DNA of 64,000 nucleotides from Elusimicrobiota bacterium (GTDB taxonomy: Bacteria; Elusimicrobiota; Elusimicrobia; UBA1565), in the NCBI GenBank assembly GCA_043827405.1, contig JBDRPD010000083.1, positions 141,166-205,165 of the forward strand, in the 5' to 3' direction. The notes beneath the pieces are model-generated. The model saw only the letters and a list, made by a program, of their open reading frames with translations. It was not told where the DNA came from and did no database searches. Made by a program: the position numbers and the translations under genes. This document shows, in pieces, positions 7 through 29,597 of the stretch (positions are counted from its first letter, which is position 1; every line of letters starts with the position of its first letter).

Positions 7-1125
7 ATGGCAGCCCATATCCTTGTTTGCGACGATGATGCGAATCTGCGCGAAAGCATCCGCGACAACCTCGAGCTCGACGGCTACGAGGTCGTCGAGG
101 CGGGCATGGGCGGCGACGCGGTCGCCGCCGTCACGAAGCAGTCCTTCGATGTTATACTGATGGACTATAATCTCCCCGATATGACGGGGATCGACGCCAT
201 TCACAAGATTCGGGAGATCAACACCGAGAGTCAGATTCTTATGTTGACGGCCCATGCTTCTTTAGATACGGCGCTTAAGGCGATCCAGGAGGCGGTCTAC
301 GATTTCCTGGTTAAGCCCGTCGATTTCGACCACCTCAAGCGCGTCATCGCGAAGAGCGTGGATCGGCTGGCACTGCAGCAGGAAAACAGGCGCCTCGTCG
401 ATGATCTGCGGAAGGCCAACGAGCAGATGCTGTATCTGTCCAATATGAAGTCGAAGTTCCTGTCGATGGCTTCCCATGATTTGTCCAATGTGTTAATGAC
501 GCTGCAGGTCTCCTTTGAGATGCTGTCGGGGTCGATGACTCCCGACGGAGAGCAGAAAAAGCGCATGGGCTATATCTCCAACGGGCTCGCCCAGTTGGCG
601 CGCCTGATTGAGGACCTTGTCGACTGGGCGTCGATCGAGCAGGGCAAGTTCCGCCTTGAGCGTGAGCCCCATGCCCCCGGCAGCATCGTCACCGACGCGG
701 TCGGCGCGATCTCGGCGCGTGCGGCGCAGCGCGGGGTCAATATCAGTCATGAGGTCGAGAAGGACCTGCCGAAAATCAATGTCGACAAGAGGCGCTTGTC
801 GCAGGTTCTGGGCAATCTCCTGGAGAACGCCCTGCGTCATACGCAGAAAAAGGGATCGGTGCGGGTTTGTGTGGCCCGCAACAAGAGGGGACTGTTATTT
901 AGCGTGCAGGACTCGGGCGAAGGCATCGAGCCCCAGGACCTGAAGAGGATTTTTGAGAGTTTTTATCAGTCCTCGGGGAAGGGATCGCAGGGCCGGTTGG
1001 GCTTGGGCCTGTCGATTTCTCGTGAGATCATCCATAGCCATGGCGGGGAGATATGGGTGGAATCCAAAGGCCACGGCAAGGGCGCCTCGTTTTTGTTTAC
1101 GATCCCTGAGGCCGCAAAGTCGTAG
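7..1125 (+). CDS. Hybrid two-component protein: N-terminal receiver (REC) domain fused to a histidine kinase (HisKA + HATPase_c)
   Basis: N-terminal CheY-like motifs (LVCDDD...VILMDYNLPDMTG...LTAH). H-box FLSMASHDLSN, then G-box motifs GLGLSISREIIHSHGGEIWVESKG. ATG at 7, stop at 1125. Confidence 0.85.
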   Translation: MAAHILVCDDDANLRESIRDNLELDGYEVVEAGMGGDAVAAVTKQSFDVILMDYNLPDMTGIDAIHKIREINTESQILMLTAHASLDTALKAIQEAVYDFLVKPVDFDHLKRVIAKSVDRLALQQENRRLVDDLRKANEQMLYLSNMKSKFLSMASHDLSNVLMTLQVSFEMLSGSMTPDGEQKKRMGYISNGLAQLARLIEDLVDWASIEQGKFRLEREPHAPGSIVTDAVGAISARAAQRGVNISHEVEKDLPKINVDKRRLSQVLGNLLENALRHTQKKGSVRVCVARNKRGLLFSVQDSGEGIEPQDLKRIFESFYQSSGKGSQGRLGLGLSISREIIHSHGGEIWVESKGHGKGASFLFTIPEAAKS

Positions 1126-1175
1126 CGATCAAGACGTTGTCGGCGCATAGATTCACGAGCGTTCCAGGAGGGACG

Positions 1176-1877
1176 ATGGCTGCTGCAAAGGCAAAGGCAA
1201 AGATTAAAATTAAGGCGAAGAAGCTGACGGTGCTGATCGCGGACGATCAAACGCTGTTTCGCGAGGGAATCAAGGATCTGCTGGAGAATGAAAAATCCAT
1301 CACCGTCGTCGGGGAAGCTGCGGACGGGCTGGAGGCTGTCGCGCTCGCTAAAAAGCTCAAACCCAACGTCGTGCTGATGGATATCAAGCTGCCGAAGCTG
1401 GACGGCGTGTCCGCGACGCGGAAGGTGCGTGAGGAATGTCCCGACACCAATGTCCTGATCTTGTCGTCTTATGAGGATGAGGCGCATGTCATGGAGTCGG
1501 TGCAGGCGGGCGCGAACGGCTATCTGTCCAAGATGCTCCCCGCCGCGGAGCTGGTCAACGCGCTAAAGACCTTCGCCAATGAGGGTTTGATGATCCCACA
1601 GCCTGTTATGGGCAAGCTGCTTGAGGGCCTGCGGTCCATGTCCTCTTCGACCGCGGAGGCGACTTTGGTGGCGCTGACCAAGACGGAGATCCGGGTGCTC
1701 GCGCTGCTGGGCAGGGGTAATGCCAATAAAGAGATCGCGGCAGGTCTCGGCTGCAGCGTCAAGACCATCAAGAACCATCTTAACAGCATCTTTCAGAAGC
1801 TGGACGTGAGCAACCGGACCGAGGCCGTGGTCAAGGCCATCGAGATCGGCATGATATCGCCCGAGGACAGCGACTAG
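1176..1877 (+). CDS. NarL/FixJ-family response regulator (REC + LuxR-type HTH)
   Basis: REC motifs (LIADDQ...VVLMDIKLPKLDG). C-terminal LuxR HTH (TKTEIRVLALLGRGNANKEIAAGLGCSVKTIKNHLNSIFQKL). AGGAGG RBS 5 nt upstream of the ATG at 1176; the ORF track's 1137 start is TTG. Lys/Ala-rich N-terminal tail (AAAKAKAKIKIKAKK). Confidence 0.85.
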   Translation: MAAAKAKAKIKIKAKKLTVLIADDQTLFREGIKDLLENEKSITVVGEAADGLEAVALAKKLKPNVVLMDIKLPKLDGVSATRKVREECPDTNVLILSSYEDEAHVMESVQAGANGYLSKMLPAAELVNALKTFANEGLMIPQPVMGKLLEGLRSMSSSTAEATLVALTKTEIRVLALLGRGNANKEIAAGLGCSVKTIKNHLNSIFQKLDVSNRTEAVVKAIEIGMISPEDSD

Positions 1878-2082: not shown

Positions 2083-2124
2083 CACCGGAGCCCTCGTATC
2101 GCGGGCTCCGGTGTTATTTTATGG
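2083..2124 (+). terminator. Second rho-independent terminator-like hairpin closing a noncoding stretch
   Basis: CACCGGAGCCC-(9 nt loop)-GGGCTCCGGTG perfect 11-bp stem followed by TTATTTTATGG. Confidence 0.55.
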
Positions 2125-2219
2125 CGGAATTTGGTCCCAAATCCGTAGGCCTAAAGGCCAACAAAAAATAGGACCAAGGGCCTATGTGGGCGATTTGGGG
2201 CTGGGTTATAATACCGGGG

Positions 2220-3445
2220 TGAGACGTGCTCTCCTGATACTAGGTCTATCAGTATTGGCGGCGGGACCCCTGTATGCCGCGAATCCCACGATGGAGGATG
2301 ATTTTACGTCCATCGTGGGCTGGTTGACCGCGCAGACGGCGCAGGGCTTGGCGTTCAACTCCGGCTCGACCTTTGATCCGCCCAACGAGATGCGGGCTTG
2401 GCGTATTCAGCCGGACTTCAGTTTGGGCCTCGGCTTGATGCCGTTCGACAAGAACGCTTTCCCTCAGATGCAGGTCGAGGCCCTGGCAGAGAAGGGGCTG
2501 AAAGACGACATGCCCAGCAAGGTCCTGTTCCCTAACTTGACGTTTCATTCCCGCATGGGGCTGCCCTGGCGTATGGATATGGGCATTCGGCTCGTTAATA
2601 TGACGGTCCCCAAAAACTATCGCCTGTCGGAAACCATGGTCGGCAACGGCCAGAGCAATACCATGGGCATCGGCTTGCGCAAGCACTTCTTCGGCCGCGG
2701 GATGCCGCTGCTGACGGTTTCGGGAGCGTATAACCGGGTATTCGGCTACTTCAATTTCAAAACCCGTTTCAATGATATGGAACTGGTGCCGAACGTATTA
2801 ACGGCCAGCAGCAATGTGTTCGGTCAGATGGACTGGAACGTGACGAGCATCGGCGTCAATTTTGTCGTCAGCCAGGTGTACGGCAAGTGGACGCCGTTTA
2901 TCGGCGCCGGCTACAATCGGATTTCGGGCATCGTGGACGGACGTATGGAGGCGGTCTGGGAGACGCCGCTGATCGCCACTACGGTCGGCCGGGCGAGCGG
3001 TCGCCCGGAGCCCCATAACACCCGCTTGCTTCTCGGCTTTCAACGCGACGGCTCGTTTTTTAGCCTATTCGTCAACGGCGAGCTCAAGACCAGCGGCGTG
3101 CATGCCGGCCGGTCCTATATCGTGTCTACCGGGCTGGCGGCGCCGTTTCGTATCGGGGCCAGAAGCAGCGTTGTGCGTTATGGGCGCAATAAGCCCAAGG
3201 GCTACGCGTCGCTTCCCGAGCCGTCGCGCTTTACGTCGAGCAGCCGGGCGCGCCGTAAGAAGAGCCGCGGGGACGACCGCGTCTCTCACCGCAAGAGCCG
3301 GCTGGAGCGGTACTGGAACTGGGGCCGCAACCGCGATATGCGCAAAGCCAAGGCCGCGGCCGAGCAGGCGCCGAAGAAATCGAAGAGCGCCAAGCGCGCC
3401 AAGCGTGCTCGTCGAGAGCCTCCCGAGCTGATCTTCATCTACTAA
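2220..3445 (+). CDS. Secreted hypothetical protein with an Arg/Lys-rich C-terminal tail
   Basis: The in-frame GTG at 2220 gives the signal peptide MRRALLILGLSVLAAGPLYAANP. The ORF track's 2111 start has no signal peptide upstream, and a TATAAT box lies at about 2207. The C-terminal 90 aa are extremely basic. No recognisable family. Confidence 0.6.
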
Positions 3446-3478: not shown

Positions 3479-3508
3479 GGCCCACCATATGGAGGGCCTT
3501 TTTCTTTT
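3479..3508 (+). terminator. Rho-independent terminator after the 2220-3445 gene
   Basis: GGCCCACCATA/TGGAGGGCC imperfect stem followed by TTTTTCTTTT. Confidence 0.55.
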
Positions 3509-3575
3509 GCAAAAATCCCTAAAAGACCCATCCGCTCCCGAGGTTCTGCGGCTACCATCTATAGTAGGAGCACCT

Positions 3576-6500
3576 GTGAGAAGATACTGTGCCGTCATCC
3601 TGTCGGCGTCGTTGATCCTGGCCGCTCCCGGCCCGGGGAGCTGGGCGAGCGCCGCCCAGGTGGTGATACCGAAGACCGGAGCCGCGCCCGTGGTTTCGGG
3701 AGGCGTCGCGGTGCCGGTCGGGGCACAGTTTGCTTCGGGCATGCAGGCGGGCTTTAGCGCCGCTCCCGCGCTCTCCTTGGGCGTTTTGCCCGGGATGGAC
3801 AGGACGCCTTCTCAGGGTGCCGTCTTTCAGCTTCCGGTTTCCCTCACGCTTCCCGTTTCCCCCGCGCTGCGGCGCAGTCATCAGGGCCTTTCCGGCGTAA
3901 CCGGCGTCCCGGGTGTTATGCCCGTTCAGCCCGGCACGCATATGGGGGATGCGCAGAAGACCGGCCGGCTGCGGCAGGCTTCACCCTACGCGGCCCAGCC
4001 ATCGCGCGGCGCCTTTAAGAATACCTTGCTGCAGTCGCTGCGGCTGCCCTCGCGTCTGAAGGATAGTTCACAGATGAGCGGGGAGGAGTTGTCGCGGACT
4101 GCTGAACACGATTTCCGCCTGCATGCCGGCGCCGGTGCGGGCGGCGGTTCCGGCGCCGTCAGCGCGACGCCGTATAAAGGAAGCGCGGTTTTCGCAGCTC
4201 CTTCCGGCGCGGGGCACACCGCGGTTCCCGGCGAAGCATCGGGCATCCGTCAGGGCTGGCAGGCGCTCGCCAAGCTCTTCGCGCGCAGCGGACCGGCGGG
4301 GCTCCCTTCCGGAGTGCTGAAGCTGCACACTCCCGACGGACCGGTTAAATCCATGAATATCCGCTCTGTCGCGGGAAGAGCTCCCGGTTCGGCGGGCGGG
4401 AGCGCGGTCCTGAAAAACAGCGCGGTCGCCGAAAAGAACACTGTTTCCGACGTCTCTGCGGAGGCAATCGTGCCGGGCGGAAAAGCGGCGCCGGCTATGT
4501 CCGGATCCAGCGGAGTTAAGCCGGCGGCGGCGATTGAGAAATCTTTTTCCGTAGAGAACGGCTCGGAGTCCGGCGCGCCGGTACGCGAATATCGCTCGGC
4601 CTATTTCCCGCTGACCGTCGCCATGGTTTCGGCGGCGGTGCTGGGGCTCGCCCTCGGCCTGCCGGCGCTGCTGCAGACGATCGCTCCCGCTCTGCTGCCG
4701 AGCGCCGCTCTGCAGTCGCTGTCGGCATCGGCCGGCGTCGAATTCTTCGGCGCGGCCCTGCGTGCCGCCGTGGACGTCATCGCGGCGACGACCGCGCTGA
4801 GCGCCGCGTATGCGCTGTGGGAGGCGTTCACTTTCGCGCTGGGCGTCGCGGTGCGCAAGCCGGTATCCGACCAGGAATTCTGGAGCTTTATCCGCCAGGA
4901 GCTTAAGGGCTGGGACCTGCATCCCAGCGTCCGGGAAAGCCTGTTGGGGACGGGGCCGGGGCGCGGGATGCTCAAGCCTTATCGACCGCCGGGACGCTTC
5001 GGCGGTCTGGCCTACGGCTTTACGGCGGGCGGGGCGATCTACCTGCGGCCGGAGATGATCCGGACGCCGTGGCTGTTCCGCTGGGTGCTCAAGCATGAGC
5101 TGGTGCACCTTAACAGGCATTTCTCCCGCGGCCCGCCGGAGCGGTTAACCGGGCTGCATCGGATCTCCCGCTTTTTTGTTTCGGAACTCGGTGCGCGATT
5201 CGGGGAATGGCGCTCGATTCGCAAGCTGCGCAGCCTGCGCATCCCGGTTCTGCACCGCGTCCTGAGCGCCGCGCGGCTTTCGCTCAAACGCAGCAAGCCT
5301 TATGACATGCTCATCGTTCATCCGGGCCACCATGAATCCCGCAACTCCAAGACCTATGCCGAGCTTTCCGGGGGGCTGGCGAATGTCGTCGAGCTCTATA
5401 CCAAGGATCAGAGCGACAAGGCGGCGCTGCAGATTAAAAATGACGCTTTCGCGCCCGATGTCGAGGCCGGCATCCAGCGCCTGTCGAGCGGCGACCGGAC
5501 GCCGGATGGGAAGCGCGTTCGGGATTATTTGCAGCGCGAGGAGAACGACAGCCGGTTCCGCCTGATCGTCTATCCGCAGTCTTTCGGCGCCCTGCCCGCA
5601 GCCGCCTCCAATGACGGCCGCAAGCTGCGCCGCGCTCTGCAGCGTCTCGACCGGGTGTATATGCTGTCGCGGCAGATGCCGCTTCTGCAGCGCATCGAGA
5701 CGGTCCCGACTCGGCGGATCGGGCAGATCGAACGGCTGATCAATTCGCTCGGCATTGCCTGGAAGCCGGGAATGAGCCCCGAGCATCTCGAACAGCTGAT
5801 CAACGAAATGTATTACCGTGCGTCCCGCGACGTCATGAGCGACGACGCCTTCGTGCAGACTTTGGAGAGCGTCTATGATGCGCTGCATCATCGGGGCTCT
5901 CTGCTGCTGCCCTTCGCGCCGGGCGAGCCGGGACTCGATATGGTCGAGCGGGTCATGCGGTACTGGCGAGCGGAGGACGGGGGACGCTTTAATGTTATGC
6001 GCGTCGACCTGCCCGAAGGCGGGCATGTCCTCGTCGCGCGCAAGAGCGAGCCGCGGGTCGATTTGTGGCTGCGGCCGGCGGCGGATAAGGCGATAAAGAA
6101 GTCGGTGACGAATGTGAACACGGCGCGCAATCAGACGCCCAGCCCCGAGGATATCCTGCGCGAAGCCGGCTTCAACGATGCGGACCTTGAGCGTTTTAAG
6201 AACGCGGACATGGAGGTGCGGCACGTTTTCGGCGCCGATGTCGGCGATAACCGCATTTACGTCAATGTCCGCCGCAGCCATGCGCAGCTGCTCAAGCAGT
6301 ATGCGGTGGAGGCCGGCATCCAGTTCCAGAGCTCTGAGCGTTTCGCCCTGCATCTGGTGGAGAGCGGCCCGCTGCAGAAAGCGGATAAGGTGTGGAAGCT
6401 GGGCTTTACCGGCGCGGGCGGGCGCATCTACGATATCGACACCGGGCTTGATACGAGCCATCCGGATTTTGCGGACCGGCACATGGAATCGGTGGACTTC

Positions 6501-9500
6501 GTCGATGAAGGTCCGGAAGACTGGATCGGGCACGGCACGCATAAGGCGGGCATCTCCTACGCCAACGGCACGATTTATCGAGGCATGGCTCCGGGAGCCG
6601 AAGGACGCATGGGCAAGGTCTTCGCCCAGAACGGCATGGGCGCTTCCGACGGAGAGATTATGGCGGCCGCCGTGGATGCCATGCAGTGGGGCGCCGACGT
6701 CATCAGCCTCAGCCTCGGCAGCCCCGGGGCCGTTGAGTCGCCGCTTGCCGAGTTTTTCTCCCGCCTGACCAAGCAGAAGAACGCCAAGGGCGAATATCCG
6801 ATCGTGACCGGATCGGCCGGCAACTCCGGACCGTTCAACAGCACCAAGAGCCAGCCCTCGGTGGGCGAGAACGTGGCATCCATCACCGCCGCGGCGAAGA
6901 GCCTGGATGACGGCGTGCCGGAGATTTCCTTCTATTCCTCCGTGGGGCCCGCCTACGACCGTCGCTACGGCCGGCTGCGCTACCGGCGGCCGCTGGGGCT
7001 GACGGCTTTGGGCGGCGACGTGACGACGCCGCCCGGCGTCAAGGACGTCTACGCGGACGGCATCGAGTCGGTCAAGTCCAAGGATATGCCGGCGGGTCCG
7101 TCGGACGCCGCGGACGGGCGCCACACGCGGATGTCGGGCACGTCGATGTCCAACCCGATGATCGCGGGCATCGCCCTGCTGGTGAAGCAGGCGGTGCAGA
7201 GCGTCGTCAAATCCGGGACGGAGGCGTACGATTTCTTCACCGCCGAGCTGCCGTTCGCCGTCAATATGATCCTCATGCGTTCCGCCGAGGATATGCGGGT
7301 CCCTATCTTCTTCCAGGAGGGGGGCTTCGTTGACGCGCAGGCCGCCGTGCAGCTCGCGGTCCGGTCGTTCGGCGGCGAGTTGATCGGCGGGATGCGGCGC
7401 GCCGTCCGCGCCGTCCGGTCTTTGGGGCGCTCGACCAATAAGGTGAGCGAAGCCGCCGCGAACAGCGATGCGCGGTCGTGGGATTGGATCGTGCGCGCGA
7501 AAGCGGTATGGGAACTCGAGGATCGTCCCTTCGCGGCGGGCGAGCGGGCGCGGCAGCGCGCCATTAAGAACCTGCAGGCCAAGGCGGTCGCGGCGCCCGG
7601 CGGCAATATCGACGGTCCAGAAGAGAGCCCGCAAGCGGACATGGTCAGCAAGCGGAAGCTCGGTGACGCCGGCAACCGGGCGATGCAAAAGGACTTCGAC
7701 GCCGTGCGCAGCGACGTGGTCCCCGCGCTGATCGAGGCGCTGCAGGATAAGGTTTGGATCGTGCGGATGTACGCGGCCTTTGCGCTGCTGAATCTGCGGG
7801 CGCCCGAGGCGGTCCTGCCGCTGGCCGATGCGGCGCTGCAGGACGCCGACGGACGGGTACGGCAGACGGCCTTTCTCGCGCTGGCGGAGACGTCCGGCTA
7901 CGCCGCGGACGAAGCCCTGCGTCAGGCGCTCAACGATGGCCGCCCCGATGTCGAAATGTACGCCGCCTATGCTCTGGCGCGCCACGGCGTCATGGAGGGG
8001 ATCGCGCGCATCAGCGCCCATGCCCGCAACGCGGACAAGAAAGTGCGCTTTACGGCGGTCTGGCTCCTGGGGCAGCTGGGACGGCGGGCGCCTCCTGAAG
8101 TCACCGATGTCCTGGCCCGGCGCGTTATCGATACCGATGAGCGGGGAAATATTCGCCACCTCTCCGTCGCCTCGTTAACCGAAGTGGCGCGCGCCCGGCC
8201 CGAATCCCTCACCAATGAGACGATACTGAATCTCCTTTACTCTTCCGGCCCGCAGAACTTCGCGCTCACCCGCACGATCGCAAAATTCTTCGCCGTCGCT
8301 GCGCAGTCCTCGCTTATTCGCGATCGTATGGCCGAAAAGCCGCTGCGCGAAGACATCCTCCGCTTTATCCATAAATACAAGAACGCCGTGCATCGGCCCG
8401 GCGCCCTCGGCGAGATGGTGCGCCTGCTGTCGCGGATTTTGAACGTGCCGCTGGACTCTCCGACGCCGCTGCCCAACCCCAGCGGCGAGGGGGTGCCCGG
8501 AGTCGATCCGAACCTCGGCCCGGTCGATCTGATCGTTGAATTCCCGGAAGACGCGCCTGCGGGGGCGCGCATTCAGCGCTTCGAAGATTTTCGCGCTTAC
8601 TCCGATGTAAGCAGGCGGGGCGAACAGTCGCGGCAGCGCGCTGCGCAGACGCTCGGTGAGCTCGGTTTGGCGCCGGAGATGGTGGGCACGCATGGGGCCG
8701 ATCTCCAGGTCGCGATGCCGCACAGCCAGTCGCTGTGGTTCAGCGTGCCGGACGCCAAGGTGGTGGCGTTCGCCAGCGAGATGGAATCGCGCGGCTACCG
8801 CGTGCGCCGGGCGGCGCCGATGTACCGGCTGCTGCACGAGACCGGCGAGCTATCCGGCATGCCGGCGCTGCGCGAAAAAAGCGGGCTGACCGGCGACGGG
8901 GTTCTGGTGGCTTACCTCGATGAGGGGGGTGATACCCAGCACCCGGCCCTCCCGGCCAAGCGCATACGCGTCAAGAAGAATTTTACCACGGACGGCAGGT
9001 CCGGCGAAGTCGAGCGTGAGAGCGTTAGTCATGGGACCCATGGTATGGGCATCGTGGGCGGCGAAAGCGTCGACGGCTCGCCCTACGTCGGCATGGCGCC
9101 GGGCGTGGAGTTCGCGATCGGGAAGGTCCTCGGCGCCACCGGCGGCAGCGAGGCGACGGTGATGGCCGGCATGGAGTGGGCGGCCAGCTTGTCGGCCGAT
9201 CCGCTGAAGGACCCGGTGATTATAAATATGAGTCTCGGCGGTCCCGGTGCGGCCGACAGTCCGATCAGCCGTCTCGTCAACCGCTTGCGGCTGAAGAATA
9301 TCGGCGTCGTGGCGGCGGCGGGCAACTCCGGGCCGATGGAGGGCACGGTCTCCTCGCCGGCGAACGCGGCACTGGCCATCTCGGTCGGCGCGGTGGACAA
9401 GGCGAAGCATCTCGCCGACTATTCCTCACGCAGCGAGAAAGGCGTACGCGAGCTGTCCTGGGTGGACTTCGGCGGCGCGGTGTTCTTCGACCGGCCGAAC

Positions 9501-9998
9501 CTTTACGATATCGTCTCGGCGCTCAATACCCGCCTGCAGGAAGAGATGGCGGATTCTCCGACCGGCGTAAAGTGGAAGGATAAGCTGCTGTACCACACCA
9601 TGTCGGGGACGTCGATGGCCGCGCCGCATACCACGGGCAAGCTGGCGGTGCTCGTCGAGGGCATGCGCAAAGCCTTCCCCGAGGGCCTGCCGACCGGCTA
9701 CCTCTTTTATATTGAAAAGCTCGTCGAAGCGACGGCCGCGCGCATGAAGGACAACGGCGAGAACGAGGTCGGGGCGGGCTTAATAGACGAGGCCGCCGCT
9801 CTGGCGGCCCTTGAGAAGGCGCTCACGGACCCGGCGAAGGTCCGCTCCGAGTCGGAAGCCATGATCCGGCGGGCCGCGGCGGATTACGGGCAGCCCGCCG
9901 CTCCCGCGTCCGCGGGCGGCTGGCTTGCGCACCTGCGGTCGGTGCCGCGGGCGGTCGGCAGCGTCGTGCACTCTTTCATGACGCTGTTTCTCTTTTAG
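3576..9998 (+). CDS. Giant (about 2140 aa) secreted or membrane-anchored multidomain protein: Gly/Ala/Ser-rich N-terminus, HExxH motif, two subtilisin-like S8 peptidase domains separated by PBS-lyase HEAT repeats
   Basis: AGGAG RBS 6 nt before the GTG at 3576, giving the signal peptide VRRYCAVILSASLILAAPGPGSWASA. S8 domain 1 at about 6400-7200 (DTGLDTSHPDF / HGTHKAG / AGNSGP / GTSMSNPMIAG). HEAT repeats at about 7720-8110. S8 domain 2 at about 8890-9700 (LDEGGDTQHP / SHGTHGMG / AGNSGP / MSGTSMAAPH). HELVH at 5092-5112. Confidence 0.8.
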   Translation: MRRYCAVILSASLILAAPGPGSWASAAQVVIPKTGAAPVVSGGVAVPVGAQFASGMQAGFSAAPALSLGVLPGMDRTPSQGAVFQLPVSLTLPVSPALRRSHQGLSGVTGVPGVMPVQPGTHMGDAQKTGRLRQASPYAAQPSRGAFKNTLLQSLRLPSRLKDSSQMSGEELSRTAEHDFRLHAGAGAGGGSGAVSATPYKGSAVFAAPSGAGHTAVPGEASGIRQGWQALAKLFARSGPAGLPSGVLKLHTPDGPVKSMNIRSVAGRAPGSAGGSAVLKNSAVAEKNTVSDVSAEAIVPGGKAAPAMSGSSGVKPAAAIEKSFSVENGSESGAPVREYRSAYFPLTVAMVSAAVLGLALGLPALLQTIAPALLPSAALQSLSASAGVEFFGAALRAAVDVIAATTALSAAYALWEAFTFALGVAVRKPVSDQEFWSFIRQELKGWDLHPSVRESLLGTGPGRGMLKPYRPPGRFGGLAYGFTAGGAIYLRPEMIRTPWLFRWVLKHELVHLNRHFSRGPPERLTGLHRISRFFVSELGARFGEWRSIRKLRSLRIPVLHRVLSAARLSLKRSKPYDMLIVHPGHHESRNSKTYAELSGGLANVVELYTKDQSDKAALQIKNDAFAPDVEAGIQRLSSGDRTPDGKRVRDYLQREENDSRFRLIVYPQSFGALPAAASNDGRKLRRALQRLDRVYMLSRQMPLLQRIETVPTRRIGQIERLINSLGIAWKPGMSPEHLEQLINEMYYRASRDVMSDDAFVQTLESVYDALHHRGSLLLPFAPGEPGLDMVERVMRYWRAEDGGRFNVMRVDLPEGGHVLVARKSEPRVDLWLRPAADKAIKKSVTNVNTARNQTPSPEDILREAGFNDADLERFKNADMEVRHVFGADVGDNRIYVNVRRSHAQLLKQYAVEAGIQFQSSERFALHLVESGPLQKADKVWKLGFTGAGGRIYDIDTGLDTSHPDFADRHMESVDFVDEGPEDWIGHGTHKAGISYANGTIYRGMAPGAEGRMGKVFAQNGMGASDGEIMAAAVDAMQWGADVISLSLGSPGAVESPLAEFFSRLTKQKNAKGEYPIVTGSAGNSGPFNSTKSQPSVGENVASITAAAKSLDDGVPEISFYSSVGPAYDRRYGRLRYRRPLGLTALGGDVTTPPGVKDVYADGIESVKSKDMPAGPSDAADGRHTRMSGTSMSNPMIAGIALLVKQAVQSVVKSGTEAYDFFTAELPFAVNMILMRSAEDMRVPIFFQEGGFVDAQAAVQLAVRSFGGELIGGMRRAVRAVRSLGRSTNKVSEAAANSDARSWDWIVRAKAVWELEDRPFAAGERARQRAIKNLQAKAVAAPGGNIDGPEESPQADMVSKRKLGDAGNRAMQKDFDAVRSDVVPALIEALQDKVWIVRMYAAFALLNLRAPEAVLPLADAALQDADGRVRQTAFLALAETSGYAADEALRQALNDGRPDVEMYAAYALARHGVMEGIARISAHARNADKKVRFTAVWLLGQLGRRAPPEVTDVLARRVIDTDERGNIRHLSVASLTEVARARPESLTNETILNLLYSSGPQNFALTRTIAKFFAVAAQSSLIRDRMAEKPLREDILRFIHKYKNAVHRPGALGEMVRLLSRILNVPLDSPTPLPNPSGEGVPGVDPNLGPVDLIVEFPEDAPAGARIQRFEDFRAYSDVSRRGEQSRQRAAQTLGELGLAPEMVGTHGADLQVAMPHSQSLWFSVPDAKVVAFASEMESRGYRVRRAAPMYRLLHETGELSGMPALREKSGLTGDGVLVAYLDEGGDTQHPALPAKRIRVKKNFTTDGRSGEVERESVSHGTHGMGIVGGESVDGSPYVGMAPGVEFAIGKVLGATGGSEATVMAGMEWAASLSADPLKDPVIINMSLGGPGAADSPISRLVNRLRLKNIGVVAAAGNSGPMEGTVSSPANAALAISVGAVDKAKHLADYSSRSEKGVRELSWVDFGGAVFFDRPNLYDIVSALNTRLQEEMADSPTGVKWKDKLLYHTMSGTSMAAPHTTGKLAVLVEGMRKAFPEGLPTGYLFYIEKLVEATAARMKDNGENEVGAGLIDEAAALAALEKALTDPAKVRSESEAMIRRAAADYGQPAAPASAGGWLAHLRSVPRAVGSVVHSFMTLFLF

Positions 9999-10001
9999 GG
10001 T

Positions 10002-10892
10002 TTAGTCGCCGAGAATCTGCCGGGTTCGCTGTTCGGCGGAAATCACCGTGTTGTAGAGCAGGAAGGTGACGGTCAGCGGGCCGATGCCGCCCGGGACCGG
10101 AGTGATAAATCCCGCGACCTGGCGCGCCGATTCAAAGTCCACATCGCCGCATATCTCATTGCCCTTGCTGTATACGCCGGCGTCCAGCACGATTGCGCCG
10201 GGCTTGAGCCAGTCGCCGTGGATAAAGCGCGGTTTGCCGACCGCCGAGACTACGATGTCGGCGCGGCGGACGAGGCCCGGCAGGTCCTTGGTCTGGGAGT
10301 GGCACAAGGTCACCGTGGCGTCGAGGCAGGACAGCAGGTGCGCCGTCGGTTTGCCGACGATATTCGAGCGGCCGATTATGACCGCCGCCAGGCCCCGCGG
10401 GTCTACTCCGGTCTCCAGCAGCAGCTGGATGGTGGCGATTGCCGTGCAGGGGATGAGGGTGTCGGCGCGCTTGAGCTGCTGGAAGGACTTTTCCCGGAAC
10501 AGCTTGCCGAAGTTCGCCGAGGTCACTCCCTCGACGTCCTTTTCCTGAGGGATCGCTTCGATAATGCGGCGGGCGTCCAAGTGTTCGGGCATGGGCAGCT
10601 CGACGATAATCCCATCAATATTGAGATCCTGGTCGAGCTTGCCGAGGATGCGCAGGACATCTTTTTCCTTGATGGACTGCGGTAGTGCCTCGACGGTGCA
10701 CTCGACGCCCGCGTTCTTGCAGGCGTTGAGCTTATGCTTGAGATATATCTGGGATGACGGATCGCCGCCGATCGAGAGGATGGCGAGATGCGGCGGGCTG
10801 CCGCGCTTTTCCAGGACCAATGAAGAGCGTTCCTGCAGGTCCTTGAGCAGGTTCTGCGCGACCTTCTTCCCTTTGAGCAGCACCGCGCTCAT
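10002..10892 (-). CDS. folD: Bifunctional methylenetetrahydrofolate dehydrogenase/cyclohydrolase
   Basis: Full-length match to the FolD family (GGDPSSQIYLKHK...VELPMP...IGRSNIVGKP...ITPVPGGIGPLT). Confidence 0.93.
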   Translation of the reverse strand: MSAVLLKGKKVAQNLLKDLQERSSLVLEKRGSPPHLAILSIGGDPSSQIYLKHKLNACKNAGVECTVEALPQSIKEKDVLRILGKLDQDLNIDGIIVELPMPEHLDARRIIEAIPQEKDVEGVTSANFGKLFREKSFQQLKRADTLIPCTAIATIQLLLETGVDPRGLAAVIIGRSNIVGKPTAHLLSCLDATVTLCHSQTKDLPGLVRRADIVVSAVGKPRFIHGDWLKPGAIVLDAGVYSKGNEICGDVDFESARQVAGFITPVPGGIGPLTVTFLLYNTVISAEQRTRQILGD

Positions 10893-22473: not shown

Positions 22474-23472
22474 ATGATTACATGGCTGTATCGAGTAATG
22501 GTTTTGGTCGGCTGTCCCGCTCTCGTCTACTTTCAGATCGCCAAAGACCCGCGGGCGGTGCTTATCGGGCTCGGCGTCGGCGTCGTCCTCGTGGTGTTTG
22601 AGCTGCTGCTTGAGAAGATCAGTCTTATTACCTTGGTTTCCGGCGTTCTCGGCGCGAGCGCGGGGCTCATTATGGCGAAGCTCGCCGACTATACGGCCTT
22701 CCAGGTCGGCGACGAGGCCTTTTATCATGCCTGGGGCAAGTATTCCGCGCTGCGCTACTTCGCCTTCGGCATCCTCGGCATGTTCGTGACCATCCGCAAG
22801 ATCCTGCCTGAGATCGATACCCTGGACAAGGATATTCTGGCGATTTCCAAGCGCCGGGGATCCAATATGAAGGTCCTCGATACCAGCGCCATTATCGACG
22901 GCCGGGTCGTGGATATCTGCGAGACCCATTTTATCGGCGGCTCGCTGATCGTTCCGCGCTTTGTCCTTAACGCGCTGCAGCACATGGCGGACTCCGGCGA
23001 CAGCATGAAGCGCGCGCGCGGCCGGCGCGGACTCGACATCCTGGCGCGCCTGCAGGAGAACCCGGAAATCCCGCTCAAGATCATCGACAAGGACGTCCCC
23101 GAGATCGAGGACACGGACGCCAAGGTCGTGCGGCTGGCCAAGCAGCTCGGCGGCAAGGTTTTTACGACGGACTTCAATCTCAATAAGATCGCGTCTCTGG
23201 AGGGCGTGCAGGTCCTCAACGTCAACGACCTGACCAACGCGCTCAAGCCGGTGGTGCTGCCGGGCGAGAAGATGTCGCTGTTTGTCATGAAAGAGGGCAA
23301 GGAGCGCAGCCAGGGGGTCGGCTATCTCGACGACGGAACCATGGTGGTCGTCGAAGACGGCAAGTCGTATATCGGCGAACGCATCGATCTTGTGGTTACT
23401 TCCATCCTGCAGACTTCGCAGGGCCGGATGATATTCGGCAAGTTCCAGGAGCCCGAACAGGAGCCGGCCTAG
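22474..23472 (+). CDS. PIN/TRAM-domain membrane protein (YacL family)
   Basis: Four N-terminal TM helices. PIN domain (VLDTSAIIDGRV...TTDFNLNK). C-terminal TRAM-like beta domain. Typical radA-neighbour position. Confidence 0.75.
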   Translation: MITWLYRVMVLVGCPALVYFQIAKDPRAVLIGLGVGVVLVVFELLLEKISLITLVSGVLGASAGLIMAKLADYTAFQVGDEAFYHAWGKYSALRYFAFGILGMFVTIRKILPEIDTLDKDILAISKRRGSNMKVLDTSAIIDGRVVDICETHFIGGSLIVPRFVLNALQHMADSGDSMKRARGRRGLDILARLQENPEIPLKIIDKDVPEIEDTDAKVVRLAKQLGGKVFTTDFNLNKIASLEGVQVLNVNDLTNALKPVVLPGEKMSLFVMKEGKERSQGVGYLDDGTMVVVEDGKSYIGERIDLVVTSILQTSQGRMIFGKFQEPEQEPA

Positions 23473-25541
23473 CGGTCTTCTTCTTCCGCCGGCAGGTCCG
23501 CCAGCGAGTCGGGGAGCTGCTCCAGCATCCGCAGGAAGTCCTTGACGTCGGGCATCCGCGTCCGGTGGTCGAGGTCGAGCGCGCGCTCAAGCAGCACGGT
23601 CAGGCGCGGGTCCGGCTCGCGTCCGCCGATATGCGGGAGTTCGCCGGTCAGCATCTCGTAGCAGCATAAGCCCAGCGAATAGATGTCCGAGATCGGCGTC
23701 GTCTCTCCGCGCTTAGCCTCGGGCGCCGCGTAGCGTTCGGCGCCTTCCCCGGTGGTGCGCGCCAGCACGAAATCCGAGACCTTGATATAGCCCTTATTGG
23801 TCACGATGATGCGCTCGGGGCTCAAGCCCCCGTGCGCTATGCCGTGATGGTGCGCATGCTCCAGGGCGCGGCAGACGGGGATCAGGATGTCGCGCACCTG
23901 GCCGACCGGGAATTCGCCGACCTCTTCCAGGATGCTGTGAACGCTCTTGCCCGGGGTGTAGCCGTAGACGATATAGAGTCCGGAGGCGATATCGAGAATC
24001 TCGTAGAGGTCGACGATATTGGGATGGCGCAGCTTGGCCGCCGCGCGCGCCTCGTCGAGGCGGCGGGCGCGCTCTTCGGCGGGCTGGGCCTTGCTGCCGG
24101 CGTAGAGCCGCTTGATGAGGGCGGCGCGGCCCAGCGTCTGGTCCTGCGCCTTCCATATTTCGACGGTTCCGTCGTAGCCCATGAAGCGGATTAGATCGTA
24201 CTTCTCGGCGATCGTCATATTGCGCCGCAGCTTCAGCGGCGGCAGCGGGGTGCGTGAGATTATTGTTGTTTTCGTTTCTGTCTTCTGCTTCGGGGCGACG
24301 TTTTCCGTCCAGGAGCGGAGGCGCTTGGCGACGGTTCCGAAGGCGTCCAGCTTCGTCTGCTTCGGGTCTTTACGGCGGCGCGTCAGCATCACGATCGCCG
24401 CCATGAGAGCGACTCCGAGCAGCGCCCCTAGTATCATGAAAAGCGCGTTGGTGCCCGAGCCGCCCTGCGCTGTCGCCGCCGCCGGCGCCTCCTCGTCGCG
24501 CAGCAGCTTCCAGCTGCTGCCTTCGGCATCGAACAGGTCGCGGCTGTCGGCGTATTTTAGGTAGCGCAAAAAGCGAGCCGGGTCCAGCTTGGCGGCGATG
24601 CGCAGGTTCTGCATCCGCAGCTCTTTGTCTCCGCTCTGCTCATGCGCCAGCGCCAGCAGGAAGAAGGCGTCCGCGTTATGCGGTGCCAACGCGGTCGCAT
24701 AAGTTGCGCTTTCCACCGCTTCGGCGAAGCGTTTCTGCTCCAGCAGGCTTTGCGTCAGGATGATGACCGCTTTGATGTCGCCGGTGCCGCCGACCATGGC
24801 GGAGCGCGCCGCGGCCTCGGCCTCGGGGAGGCGGTTGCCGCGCAGCAGCTTCTCCGCCTGACGCAGCGGGGCGCCGCGCACGGCGTTGGTCGCCGCAGCG
24901 CGGGGCAAATCCTTTTCTGTCGCCGGGCGGGGCGGGGGTTCGGCGAATTTCTTAAACGCCGGCCAATCCGACACGGAGGAGGTCGCCGGTATGCTCGCCG
25001 GCGATGCGTCCCCGGCGCTTTTCGGGCTCTTGCGCGCGGGTTCGCGCCGCGTCGCGCGCGCGCCCGCGTCCTGATTATTATCCTGGTCGCCGCCGGATTT
25101 TCTGAACTTCCAGTGATCCCGAGTGCTTATGTCGGGCCGCGGGTCGCGCTTGAGGCTCTGCGCCGGGGGCTTGACGTCGAGGTTGTTGTAGCCCGCGGGG
25201 CGGGTATAGGATACGTCGCCCGCGGGCTTCTGCTCTACGATCGGCTTTTGCGCGTTGAGGTTCTGCAGCATGAGGTCGATCTGTTCGCGCTGTTCGGGGG
25301 GGAGAGATTCATTGGCGGAGATCTTCTTCAGGGTATCGATCTGCCGCATCAGCAGTACCGCGTCGTCCATCTGCTTTTGGCCGTCCTGCATGGAATATTC
25401 GTAGTCCTTGTCCTTGCGCTTGCCGGATTTCTGCTTATCGCCGGACGCTTTCTGCGGCGGCGGGTCGGCGTTCTGCGGCGCGGCGGCGATCAGCAGCGAC
25501 GCGGCGAGAAGGCCGGCGGAGCAGCGGAGGAAGCTCCTCAT
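23469..25541 (-). CDS. Signal peptide + TPR repeats + TM helix + C-terminal Ser/Thr-kinase-like domain with a degenerate catalytic loop (predicted pseudokinase)
   Basis: Kinase subdomains are recognisable (AALIK; E in alpha-C; DFV for DFG; AAPE; DIYSLG). The HRDLKPEN motif is replaced by IAHGGLSPER, so the catalytic Asp, Lys and Asn are lost. TPR-like helices in the N-terminal periplasmic half. TM ALFMILGALLGVALMAAIVML. Confidence 0.75.
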   Translation of the reverse strand: MRSFLRCSAGLLAASLLIAAAPQNADPPPQKASGDKQKSGKRKDKDYEYSMQDGQKQMDDAVLLMRQIDTLKKISANESLPPEQREQIDLMLQNLNAQKPIVEQKPAGDVSYTRPAGYNNLDVKPPAQSLKRDPRPDISTRDHWKFRKSGGDQDNNQDAGARATRREPARKSPKSAGDASPASIPATSSVSDWPAFKKFAEPPPRPATEKDLPRAAATNAVRGAPLRQAEKLLRGNRLPEAEAAARSAMVGGTGDIKAVIILTQSLLEQKRFAEAVESATYATALAPHNADAFFLLALAHEQSGDKELRMQNLRIAAKLDPARFLRYLKYADSRDLFDAEGSSWKLLRDEEAPAAATAQGGSGTNALFMILGALLGVALMAAIVMLTRRRKDPKQTKLDAFGTVAKRLRSWTENVAPKQKTETKTTIISRTPLPPLKLRRNMTIAEKYDLIRFMGYDGTVEIWKAQDQTLGRAALIKRLYAGSKAQPAEERARRLDEARAAAKLRHPNIVDLYEILDIASGLYIVYGYTPGKSVHSILEEVGEFPVGQVRDILIPVCRALEHAHHHGIAHGGLSPERIIVTNKGYIKVSDFVLARTTGEGAERYAAPEAKRGETTPISDIYSLGLCCYEMLTGELPHIGGREPDPRLTVLLERALDLDHRTRMPDVKDFLRMLEQLPDSLADLPAEEEDR

Positions 25542-28139: not shown

Positions 28140-29597
28140 TTATTTCGCGGGCCGGACGATGGGCGGGTCGCCGGCCTCTATGATCTCGACGGTCGCGCCC
28201 TTCTCGATCGCGCCGCTGTCGGCGAGCGCCTCGACAATCTGGGTGCCGAACTGCACCCGGCCTTCGGGTTTGAGCGGGCCCAGAGCGAGACCACGGCGCC
28301 CGACGGCCAGCTCGCCCTCCTCCGGAGTGTCGAGCGGCGCGGTGCTCCCCGCGTCGGTGTCGAGCGGGCCGCGATTGAACATCGGCAGGCGGGGGATCAT
28401 GAACAGCAGCGATATGATGCCCGCGACCCCGCCGGCGCCCGCGGCGGCCAGGACCCAGAGAACTTCGCGCAGGCGGTCCCACTCCCAAGGAGCGTGCGGC
28501 ACGACAAAAGGGACGATCATGAGATAGAATCCGATCATCAGGCACAGGAAGCCCCCGATGCCTGCGAGCCCGAAGCCCGGCACCACGAAGATCTCGAGCG
28601 CGATCAGAAACAGTCCGGCCAGGACCAGCAGCAGATCGAACCAGCCCGCCATGTCCGCCAGGTAATGGCCCCAGAAGACCACGATGAAGCAGGCGATGCC
28701 GGCGGCGCCCATCCAGCCGAAGCCGGGCATATGCATCTCGCCGGAGATCAGCATGAAGCCGAGAAATACCAGCAGACTCGTCGCGGCGCTGCCGGTGATG
28801 ATATCAATGAACTTTTCCAGCCCGGTCTTGCGGGCATCGATCAGCGTCGGGTCCGGGATGTTTTCCCGGCGCAGCGCATACGTGATCGAGTCGGCCGGCT
28901 CGGCGAGCCCGTAGCGGATCGCCCGGCGGGCGCTGAGGTTCAGGAGCTTCCCCTTGGCGATGACCAGCTCGGGCTCGCCGCGGATTCGCCCTTCCTTCTT
29001 CAGGCGTTCCAGCTCCGGCGCGGTGACGAAGTGCGTTTCGCCGCCGGCGGTGACGCGATGAACTTCCAGGTCCTTGTCGACCATGGCGGCGGCGAGCGCC
29101 GCCGGGTAATTGTTGCGCTCGGCAAGGGCGCGGAACTTCGCCCGCAGGGCGGAGATGTGCTTCTCTCCCGCCGCCTCCGTTTTGCCGCCGCCGCTCATCA
29201 CGGGAGCGGCGGAGCCGATCGAGGCGCTTGGGGCCATGTAGATTTTGCCGCAGGCGAGCGAGATCAGCGCCCCGGCCGACCAGGCCTTGTCCTCTACCCA
29301 GGCGAATACCGGGATATTGGGCTCCTGCGCCGCGCGGGCGATGTCGAGCGCCGCGTCCACGCGCCCGCCGAAAGTGTCGATGCGCAGGACAACGGCGCGC
29401 GCGTCTTCCCTGCCGGCGAGCGAGCGCCGGACATAGGAGGCGAGGCCATGGGTAATCTCGCCGTCGATATGGATGACCAGAACCTTGCTGCCGGCGGTCG
29501 TGGGAGCGGGTCCGCGGCTGGCGGCGAAGCCGACGGCCGCATAGAGCAGGCCGGCGGCCAATGCGGCCAGCGATCTTGTAAGCGGTTGCGCGTTCAT
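28140..29597 (-). CDS. NfeD-family membrane-bound ClpP-class serine protease with C-terminal OB-fold
   Basis: Signal or TM start MNAQPLTRSLAALAAGLLYAAV. ClpP-like region VLVIHIDGEITHG...DTFGGRVDAALDI...KAWSAGALISLA. Several TM helices, then a C-terminal beta domain. Classic partner of SPFH proteins. ATG overlaps the upstream stop (ATGA). Confidence 0.8.
   Translation of the reverse strand: MNAQPLTRSLAALAAGLLYAAVGFAASRGPAPTTAGSKVLVIHIDGEITHGLASYVRRSLAGREDARAVVLRIDTFGGRVDAALDIARAAQEPNIPVFAWVEDKAWSAGALISLACGKIYMAPSASIGSAAPVMSGGGKTEAAGEKHISALRAKFRALAERNNYPAALAAAMVDKDLEVHRVTAGGETHFVTAPELERLKKEGRIRGEPELVIAKGKLLNLSARRAIRYGLAEPADSITYALRRENIPDPTLIDARKTGLEKFIDIITGSAATSLLVFLGFMLISGEMHMPGFGWMGAAGIACFIVVFWGHYLADMAGWFDLLLVLAGLFLIALEIFVVPGFGLAGIGGFLCLMIGFYLMIVPFVVPHAPWEWDRLREVLWVLAAAGAGGVAGIISLLFMIPRLPMFNRGPLDTDAGSTAPLDTPEEGELAVGRRGLALGPLKPEGRVQFGTQIVEALADSGAIEKGATVEIIEAGDPPIVRPAK

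Follow-up and report, generated by a model that had tools for sequence, protein, structure and literature searches.

A single gene for a multidomain protease

The 64,000-nucleotide stretch of Elusimicrobiota DNA analyzed here (contig JBDRPD010000083.1, positions 141,166 to 205,165; "the window" throughout) carries on its forward strand a single gene for a 2140-residue protein in which two subtilase (S8) domains, S8-1 and S8-2, are spaced by a HEAT-repeat solenoid and preceded by a signal peptide, a long linker, a hydrophobic hairpin, a small module with an HExxH motif and a middle region, MID (Table 1). The Elusimicrobiota are almost entirely uncultured, and the source is a metagenome-assembled genome (MAG). 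The open reading frame runs without interruption from 3489 to 9998 (+), with no internal stop over 6.4 kb. Within it, the GTG at 3576 is the likely start, because the AGGAG upstream is correctly spaced, a typical Sec signal peptide follows, and the product is exactly the 2140-residue protein held by NCBI; P0001, on a 276-kb contig, is identical throughout and is annotated "MAG: S8 family serine peptidase [Elusimicrobiota bacterium]".

The closest relative, P0002, is co-linear from end to end (53% identity, 99% coverage). Word-indexed protein searches returned 5 to 7 relatives, 5 of them full-length, and understated the size of the family, which came out only in an exhaustive HMMER search. The profile for it, built on the HExxH and middle regions and run against 1.84 billion cluster representatives, found 52 clusters (50% identity) at E ≤ 1e-3 and 38 at E ≤ 1e-30. 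Hidden Markov models of the modules, built from the first alignment, recovered a common order in about 30 of the 52: signal peptide, linker, hairpin, HExxH module, MID, S8-1, HEAT, pre-S8-2 unit, S8-2. All named members are from Elusimicrobia or Elusimicrobiota MAGs, as are all 8 of the loci found among GTDB species-representative genomes, and existing annotation goes no further than "S8 family serine peptidase" or "hypothetical protein". As far as sampled, then, the family is restricted to the Elusimicrobiota. The architecture is rare, as an earlier note made from the DNA letters alone had supposed, and a literature search found no paper describing it as a whole; its component parts are known.

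That note had also taken the gene to be continuous and had named, as one way in which it might fail, a sequencing or assembly error that joins two or three adjacent genes. The MAG origin of the sequence and a relative, P0009, that has no HExxH segment could be cited for such an artefact. Against it stand the stop-free reading frame and a domain order shared by about 30 cluster representatives and by the 12 loci fetched, the samples and assemblers behind them being independent of one another. For practical purposes a frameshift or chimera is excluded, and we regard this explanation as effectively refuted. P0009 itself (778 residues, partial) passes from signal peptide and linker directly into MID, the hairpin and HExxH module being missing, and a further deletion lies inside it; the sequence reflects a naturally occurring deletion or else a fault of assembly.

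Table 1. Features of the protease gene, of neighboring genes in the window, and of related genes at compared loci (L numbers; positions are those of each locus)
Feature	Position	Strand	Basis
Protease gene, 2140 aa + stop, GTG start	3576..9998	+	open reading frame list; NCBI protein P0001
Shine-Dalgarno-like AGGAG, 5 nt before GTG 3576	3566..3570	+	sequence
Sec-type signal peptide, MRRYCAVILSASLILAAPGPGSWASA before the putative cleavage site and AQ after it	3576..3653	+	read from sequence
Low-complexity linker, Ala/Gly/Ser/Pro-rich, ~310 aa, poorly conserved	3654..4595	+	composition, alignment; no Pfam match
Hydrophobic helical hairpin (putative membrane anchor), aa 341-375 + 390-426	4596..4853	+	hydropathy, AlphaFold2, relatives
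Family-specific zincin-like module	4863..5255	+	30-sequence alignment, census, AlphaFold2
Module motifs: RPE; HELVH; RGPP; Glu537	5046-5054; 5094-5108; 5127-5138; 5184-5186	+	sequence and alignment
MID region, ~365 aa, no known family	5256..6350	+	no Pfam/NCBIfam match; conserved across family
Subtilase domain 1 (S8-1); D955 6438, H986 6531, N1083 6822, S1190 7143	6381..7358	+	Pfam, PDB sequence matches
Long helix, then HEAT-type α-solenoid, ~14 helices (7 repeats)	7482..8450	+	Pfam, AlphaFold2, Foldseek
Prodomain-like unit 2, β-α-β-β-α-β, before S8-2	8493..8840	+	AlphaFold2/DSSP, Foldseek
Subtilase domain 2 (S8-2); D1782 8919, H1819 9030, N1917 9324, S2013 9612	8883..9800	+	Pfam, PDB sequence matches
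C-terminal tail ending in hydrophobic ...VGSVVHSFMTLFLF	9903..9995	+	read from sequence
Hybrid histidine kinase (receiver-HisKA-HATPase)	7-1125	+	upstream in window
LuxR/GerE-type response regulator	1137-1877	+	upstream in window
DUF6588-like gene, 444 codons: signal peptide, β-strand-rich body, basic tail ending ...LIFIY	2111..3445	+	weak Pfam, synteny
DUF6588-like homologues elsewhere	L001 6808-8004; L002 6985-8004; L004 6850-7947
GH77/GDE_C/MGH1-like α-glucan enzyme	L002 13401-16550 (separate gene); L004 8001-16094 (P0005, fused)

Two subtilase domains, one of them often a pseudoprotease

Pfam was run on the whole protein and then on separate segments. The whole-protein scan returned Peptidase_S8 twice, together with HEAT_2 and HEAT. 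Scanned alone, each subtilase domain matched PF00082 well above the cutoff of 21.8 bits, S8-1 at E = 3.4e-27 (95.9 bits, nucleotides ~6435-7295) and S8-2 at E = 2.6e-34 (119.3 bits, ~8892-9761). The best PDB sequence matches of S8-1 are Tk-SP, thermitase and subtilisins, and those of S8-2 are intracellular and classical subtilisins. Both domains align with Tk-SP (ProN-Tk-SP, 3afg), thermitase and subtilisin over the Asp, His, Asn and Ser motifs, and both tetrads fall on the catalytic residues of structurally solved subtilisins, so that the complete triads and oxyanion Asn reported in the earlier note hold for each domain. Unlike those enzymes, which have one catalytic domain in 300-550 residues, the protein has two units in a tethered chain of 2140. 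The S8-1 tetrad is invariant in the first alignment of P0001 relatives, and the Asp motif of S8-2 reads D-E-G, not D-T/S-G. From sequence, both domains are S8 subtilases and apparently active.

The suggestion that this is a pro-protein convertase-like machine fared less well. P_proprotein (PF01483) has no match anywhere in the protein at E ≤ 10, no other convertase feature is present, and the best matches among proteins of known structure are ordinary subtilisins, Tk-SP and intracellular subtilisins; membership of the kexin/convertase group (S8B) is thus rejected for want of the P-domain. Type VII secretion mycosin (TIGR03921) was also set aside, its 131.6 bits against a cutoff of 278.75 reflecting general S8 similarity only. 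S8-1 and S8-2 are 32% identical, no closer to each other than to unrelated subtilases, which rules out a recent internal duplication. Elsewhere in the window (47326-48603, -) lies an ordinary single-domain subtilase of 425 residues (Peptidase_S8 E = 6.8e-58), about 30% identical to each S8 domain of the large protein.

A census of key residues, read from hmmalign columns, separates the two domains. The S8-1 tetrad is intact in essentially all full-length members, Asp being replaced by Gly in P0020, P0025 and P0039. For S8-2, the tetrad is intact in 10 clusters less than 50% identical to one another (P0001, P0002, P0019, P0024, P0027, P0033, P0035, P0038, P0054 and P0057) and degenerate in 17, which lack the Asp/His segment and have Ala, Gly or a gap in place of the Ser. 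In a neighbor-joining tree of S8-1, which is rough and carries no support values, the window protein and the other members with an intact S8-2 share a clade, inside which P0037 is the one nested loss, the degenerate ones form the other clade, and the outgroup-like giant P0057 is intact. This suggests that S8-2 was ancestrally active and was inactivated in one main loss. Its catalytic residues are dispensable in most of the family, and since they are degenerate in 17 clusters and intact in 10, the conserved role of the domain is probably not catalysis. P0057 (5537 residues, Elusimicrobiota) has a pair of intact S8 domains spaced by a helical region, many hydrophobic segments and two degenerate HExxH-type modules, one of which reads NLMVH at the HExxH positions; further HExxH sites and a nuclease-like stretch can be picked out by eye, and the whole resembles an enlarged form of this system.

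AlphaFold2 was applied to two segments. The model of residues 335-1290 was built from a 7-sequence alignment, and S8-1 itself came out poorly; that of residues 1291-2140 is good only for the HEAT region and the pre-S8-2 unit, S8-2 being poorly modelled because 3 of the 5 aligned sequences are pseudoproteases with deletions. The 115 residues before S8-2 adopt a β-α-β-β-α-β order by DSSP, with a predicted local distance difference test score (pLDDT) of 75-80, and in Foldseek this unit with the S8-2 model matches ProN-Tk-SP (3afg) over 478 of 505 residues. Before S8-1, the last ~70 residues of MID (nucleotides ~6144-6356) are modelled as a β-β-α-β unit (pLDDT 70-84), for which the strand and helix order of a prodomain fits in part only. 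On these models, both S8 domains appear to have a prodomain-like unit of their own ahead of them.

The HEAT solenoid and two family-specific modules

That HEAT repeats lie between the S8 domains was confirmed by three Pfam models above their cutoffs: HEAT_2 (PF13646, 1e-22, 80.6 bits, cutoff 27.7), HEAT (PF02985, 2e-10, 40.3 bits, cutoff 23.5) and HEAT_PBS (PF03130, 1.2e-5, 25.8 bits, cutoff 20.9). AlphaFold2 draws the region as about 14 paired helices at pLDDT 82-94, and Foldseek retrieves alphaRep/HEAT proteins (probability 1.00) and the bilin lyases CpcE/F and MpeQ. The end formerly set at 8110 is too early, as the modelled solenoid reaches ~8450; the idea of a scaffolded protease fits so confidently modelled a solenoid.

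No Pfam family matches the linker, the HExxH region, MID or the 150 residues before S8-2 at E ≤ 10, and NCBIfam gives no match for these parts either. Foldseek matches of the 335-1290 model to Rossmann/methyltransferase folds (E > 0.1) were treated as noise. The HExxH motif picked out by the earlier note is present as HELVH and is kept in most relatives. Its expected number by chance, from composition, is 0.046 in a protein of 2140 residues, so that conservation rather than mere occurrence is what counts. In an alignment of 30 sequences, the module of about 130 residues that surrounds it is conserved: the Arg and Glu of RPE, a Pro five residues later, both His and the Glu of HExxH, the R, P and P of RGPP seven residues past the second His, and two Glu, the first of them 26 residues after HExxH, are each at least 90% conserved. 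At low confidence (pLDDT 50-80 locally, 48.8 overall), AlphaFold2 places three short strands, the HExxH helix and, in the next helix, Glu537, a candidate third zinc ligand. This is the layout that would be expected for a small gluzincin, and the predicted run of strands, active-site helix and Glu helix, beside putative transmembrane helices, recalls the cores of M48/M56-type membrane metallopeptidases.

Pfam and NCBIfam place the module in no curated metallopeptidase family at threshold. Below threshold there are Pfam matches to eCIS_core/DUF4157 (4 of 30 modules, best E = 0.022), DUF6782, M78 and YgjP-like, all of them putative metallopeptidase families, and the module profile has chance-level matches only (CENP-X, HigA2) among PDB sequences. 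An effector of an extracellular contractile injection system (eCIS) or a polymorphic toxin was considered and rejected, the DUF4157 similarity being sub-threshold and no eCIS or type VI secretion genes lying nearby. HExxH is degenerate in seven relatives (P0028, P0034, P0038, P0039, P0049, P0052 and P0057), in which RPE and RGPP are mostly kept; catalysis by the module is thus likely, but it is not obligatory in the family.

Hydrophobic hairpin and termini

The protein had been described as secreted. The signal peptide stands, and most relatives have similar N-termini, but simple secretion does not, given the conserved two-helix hydrophobic hairpin behind the linker. The Gly/Ala/Ser-rich linker and transmembrane-like stretch of the earlier description are both recovered: Ala makes up 15%, Gly 14% and Ser 12% of residues 28-335, and the two hairpin helices have Kyte-Doolittle peaks of 2.27 and 1.5. 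AlphaFold2, at low confidence, draws them as two long helices, and most relatives have two clearly hydrophobic segments (1.8-2.5) ahead of the HExxH module. From its sequence, the protein is predicted to be tethered to the membrane by this hairpin. At the other end, tails that combine GW..R with hydrophobic residues, as in the window protein, recur in P0002, P0019 and P0024, and may be an anchor or an amphipathic helix. A C-terminal autotransporter of the EprS type was rejected (31.7 bits against a cutoff of 1700, and no Pfam autotransporter domain).

Neighboring genes and fused hydrolases

In 8 of 9 distinct loci a DUF6588-like gene lies directly upstream of the protease gene (the window, L001/L005, L002/3/6, L004, L008, L009, L010 and L012; not L007), and in several it overlaps the protease start by 4 nucleotides. 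The match of the window copy to Pfam DUF6588 (2.1e-4) is below cutoff, and its true start is probably internal, near VRRALLILG. The homologues are 33-55% identical, and each combines a signal peptide with a β-rich body and a basic or Pro-rich tail that leads into a C-terminus of the form ...(L/V/M)IF(I/W/L)x; the tail of the window copy is unusually long and rich in Lys and Arg. A profile of these proteins has no match in the PDB, and a literature search found no paper that mentions DUF6588. The protein may be an outer-membrane partner of the protease. The histidine kinase and response regulator upstream in the window also precede the DUF6588-like/protease pair at the locus of the nearest relative (L001 4559-6426) and may regulate it.

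On the 3′ side in the window, folD, panE, and then ribosomal-protein and replication genes follow on the opposite strand. The protease stop (9996-9998) and the end of the convergent folD frame (10002) are 3 nucleotides apart (9996-10004), which leaves no room for separate terminators. In the clade with a pseudoprotease S8-2, a GH77/GDE-type α-glucan enzyme is encoded immediately downstream (L002/3/6, L008, L009, L010, L012), and in P0005 and P0010 it is fused to the C-terminus of the protease. In L002 a separate signal peptide is present on the enzyme, together with an Ala/Pro-rich linker resembling that of the protease. C-terminal extensions of 600-1000 residues are found in P0011, P0013, P0018, P0020, P0025, P0032, P0033, P0034, P0038 and P0039; Pfam identifies a GH13 α-amylase domain in P0038 (1.6e-21) and P0033 (1.2e-14) and, weakly and below threshold, in P0020, the remaining GH13 extensions being judged by eye. 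In P0011, P0020 and P0038 the C-terminus is a hydrophobic tail of several spans, in which the motif "VPQI..N" is PQ-loop-like. At the P0004 locus the glycosidase is a separate gene, unlike that fused in P0005; that the P0005 fusion is purely an artefact was rejected, several independent clusters having GH13 or GH77 extensions. The window protein and P0002 have no glycosidase extension, and an Amidase_3 gene lies downstream of P0002.

A proposed envelope-anchored multi-protease and its alternatives

We put the chances at about one in two that the protein is a self-processing multi-protease, anchored in the cell envelope of Elusimicrobiota and built around its HEAT solenoid as a docking platform. 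The N-terminus would be exported by the Sec signal peptide; after a flexible linker of about 310 residues, the hairpin would hold the chain in the inner membrane, and by the count of crossings the remainder would be extracytoplasmic. Next to the membrane would sit the small zincin-like module, with HExxH and the Glu 26 residues on as putative zinc ligands, followed by the two subtilase units, each behind its own prodomain-like fold and spaced by the rigid solenoid, which probably docks a partner or substrate. S8-1 would be the constant catalytic engine, to which the conserved cleavage would fall across the family, and S8-2 would add a second catalytic specificity in the clade of the window protein and serve elsewhere in binding or regulation only. 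The subtilases would fold on their own prodomains and cut at the prodomain junctions (residues ~925-935 and ~1755-1770), the pieces staying associated. The protein probably acts with the co-encoded DUF6588-like envelope protein and, in the sister clades, probably also with the adjacent or fused exported α-glucan enzymes. In this picture the domains present, their catalytic residues, the conservation across the family, the synteny and the HEAT fold are observed, whereas the topology, the binding of zinc, the self-processing, the part played by the HEAT platform and the substrates are inferred.

Several observations weigh against this reading. AlphaFold2 models the N-terminal half poorly (mean pLDDT 48.8), and a Foldseek search of the 335-1290 model against the PDB returned nothing at E ≤ 0.001. 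Pfam Inhibitor_I9 matches neither pre-S8 unit, so the prodomain role is argued from fold order. The HExxH module, being degenerate in seven relatives, can function without zinc catalysis, and the window locus has no glycoside hydrolase partner. For topology, there are Arg and Lys residues at each outer end of the hairpin (REYRS ahead of it, VRKP behind), from which the positive-inside rule would predict a cytoplasmic catalytic part; hydrophobicity is only marginal in the window protein's second helix, where R, D and E occur; the top PDB sequence matches of S8-2 are intracellular subtilisins; and GH77/GDE enzymes are usually cytoplasmic.

These last points are the substance of an opposite topology, in which the membrane is crossed by the first helix only, or the N-terminal signal stays uncleaved as an anchor, so that proteases and solenoid face the cytoplasm as a membrane-bound regulatory or quality-control protease and the Ala/Gly/Ser linker is the sole extracytoplasmic part. 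HEAT repeats, too, are mostly cytoplasmic, and P0021 and P0011 begin without a signal peptide, though both gene calls may be truncated. Against it, both helices are clearly hydrophobic in most relatives and the model shows a two-helix hairpin; the prodomain-like units are typical of exported subtilases, prodomain-type subtilases being normally exported; and signal peptides are found on the adjoining DUF6588-like protein and on the L002 GH77/GDE protein. There is also a precedent for HEAT repeats together with S8 domains in giant proteins of the Omnitrophota, in parts predicted to be extracellular (bioRxiv 10.1101/2023.11.21.568195). Since a cleavable signal peptide and two membrane spans leave the C-terminal part outside, an extracytoplasmic catalytic part is moderately probable, and the cytoplasmic arrangement unlikely.

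A second alternative turns on the recurring hydrolases. In clostridia, CspB activates the cortex hydrolase SleC; CspB is active, and some species also have an active CspA and CspC, but in Clostridioides difficile these two are pseudoproteases, and there CspB and CspA are fused as CspBA, two subtilases in one chain (PMC7200643; NCBIfam NF040809). The full architecture described here remains rare, but for two subtilases in one chain there is thus a precedent. As in CspBA, the window protein's family has two S8 domains per polypeptide, the first catalytic and the second catalytic or pseudoprotease by lineage, and apparently a prodomain-like unit for each in the models; Csp proteins are, moreover, linked to hydrolase activation. 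In a zymogen-activating cascade of this type, the subtilase pair (active with active or active with pseudoprotease) would activate a specific exported hydrolase, held as a pro-enzyme by the solenoid: GH77/GDE or GH13 in the sister clades, Amidase_3 by P0002, and an unlinked target in the window genome. The split between intact and degenerate S8-2 parallels that between CspB and CspA (PMC7200643; NF040809 matching weakly), a hydrolase is directly downstream or fused in 8 of 10 distinct loci or proteins examined, and Amidase_3 follows P0002. Yet no hydrolase adjoins the protease gene in the window, where convergent housekeeping genes follow instead; the relation to Csp is that of the general S8 fold only, NF040809 reaching 17.2 bits against a cutoff of 1250, so that CspBA membership is rejected; and adjacency and fusion are no proof of a protease-substrate relation. 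Csp proteins differ from the window protein in being soluble proteins of Firmicutes spores that lack a membrane anchor, HEAT repeats and an HExxH module, and CspBA is cleaved into separate proteins. Since exported hydrolases repeatedly lie beside the protease or are fused to it, maturation of a pro-enzyme, on the Csp-SleC pattern, is an attractive minority hypothesis, quite unlikely as it stands.

A wider form of the same idea would make the protein the core of an undescribed, phylum-restricted envelope maturation machine that activates exported hydrolases, α-glucan enzymes or, for the nearest relative, an amidase. We hold this to be a long shot. If true, a tethered zincin and one or two subtilases on a HEAT platform, delivered or positioned by the DUF6588-like outer-membrane partner, would form a diderm counterpart of the clostridial cascade, and the shift from active to pseudoprotease S8-2 would mark a passage from catalysis to substrate sensing.

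The plainest alternative is a surface-anchored exoprotease for nutrient scavenging, with an amylase-type partner in relatives and the solenoid as a mere spacer. Two subtilisin-type domains with ordinary catalytic motifs, a signal peptide and long flexible linker as in cell-envelope proteinases, the GH13 α-amylase domains fused in relatives, and the second, ordinary S8 gene in the same window would all suit it. However, S8-2 catalysis has been lost in most of the family while the HEAT, MID and HExxH modules are strictly conserved, which points to a specific interaction role rather than bulk digestion, and the protein is tethered at the inner membrane and has no cell-surface sorting domain. A feeding protease is therefore improbable.

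The family is of interest in being conserved, phylum-specific and very large, and it adds two uncharacterized modules, the HExxH unit and MID, to known protease and HEAT parts. The active/pseudoprotease split between its two main clades offers a comparative system for the change of a catalytic domain into a binding or regulatory one, and the recurrent linkage to exported α-glucan enzymes and the DUF6588-like protein offers concrete partners. Should both subtilases and the zincin be active, three peptidase centers of two catalytic classes would reside in one chain, which would be unusual. We see in it a good lead for annotation and structural genomics rather than a surprise of principle.

Comparison with other systems

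The Omnitrophota "Archaeovorins" are giant membrane-anchored proteins with HEAT_2 repeats predicted to be extracellular and S8 domains proposed to be self-cutting (bioRxiv 10.1101/2023.11.21.568195). Like them, the window protein is a large and, on the favored topology, envelope-located protein with HEAT_2 and S8, and the family member P0057 is of such a giant type and includes the module set described here. The Archaeovorins belong to another phylum, are much larger, have another domain order and are not described as having an HExxH-MID unit. In proteins with DUF4157/eCIS_core (PF13699), too, a short HExxH module stands close to the N-terminus of a long chain of several domains, and long regions follow it (PMC8213781), whereas the RPE and RGPP motifs are specific to the family of the window protein. 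The PBS-lyase HEAT proteins (CpcE/F, MpeQ and NblB, the last a weak NCBIfam match) resemble the solenoid in their HEAT_PBS and HEAT_2 matches and in Foldseek (5n3u and 7mc4); unlike them, the solenoid shows no sign of bilin chemistry and serves, in a lineage that is not photosynthetic, to join two proteases within one chain.

Other genes noted in the window are ordinary chromosomal content: a protein with CHAP and glutathionylspermidine-synthase domains (32816-34753, +), a 690-residue Ser/Thr kinase (23469-25541, -) and an NfeD-family membrane protease-like protein (28140-30167, -).

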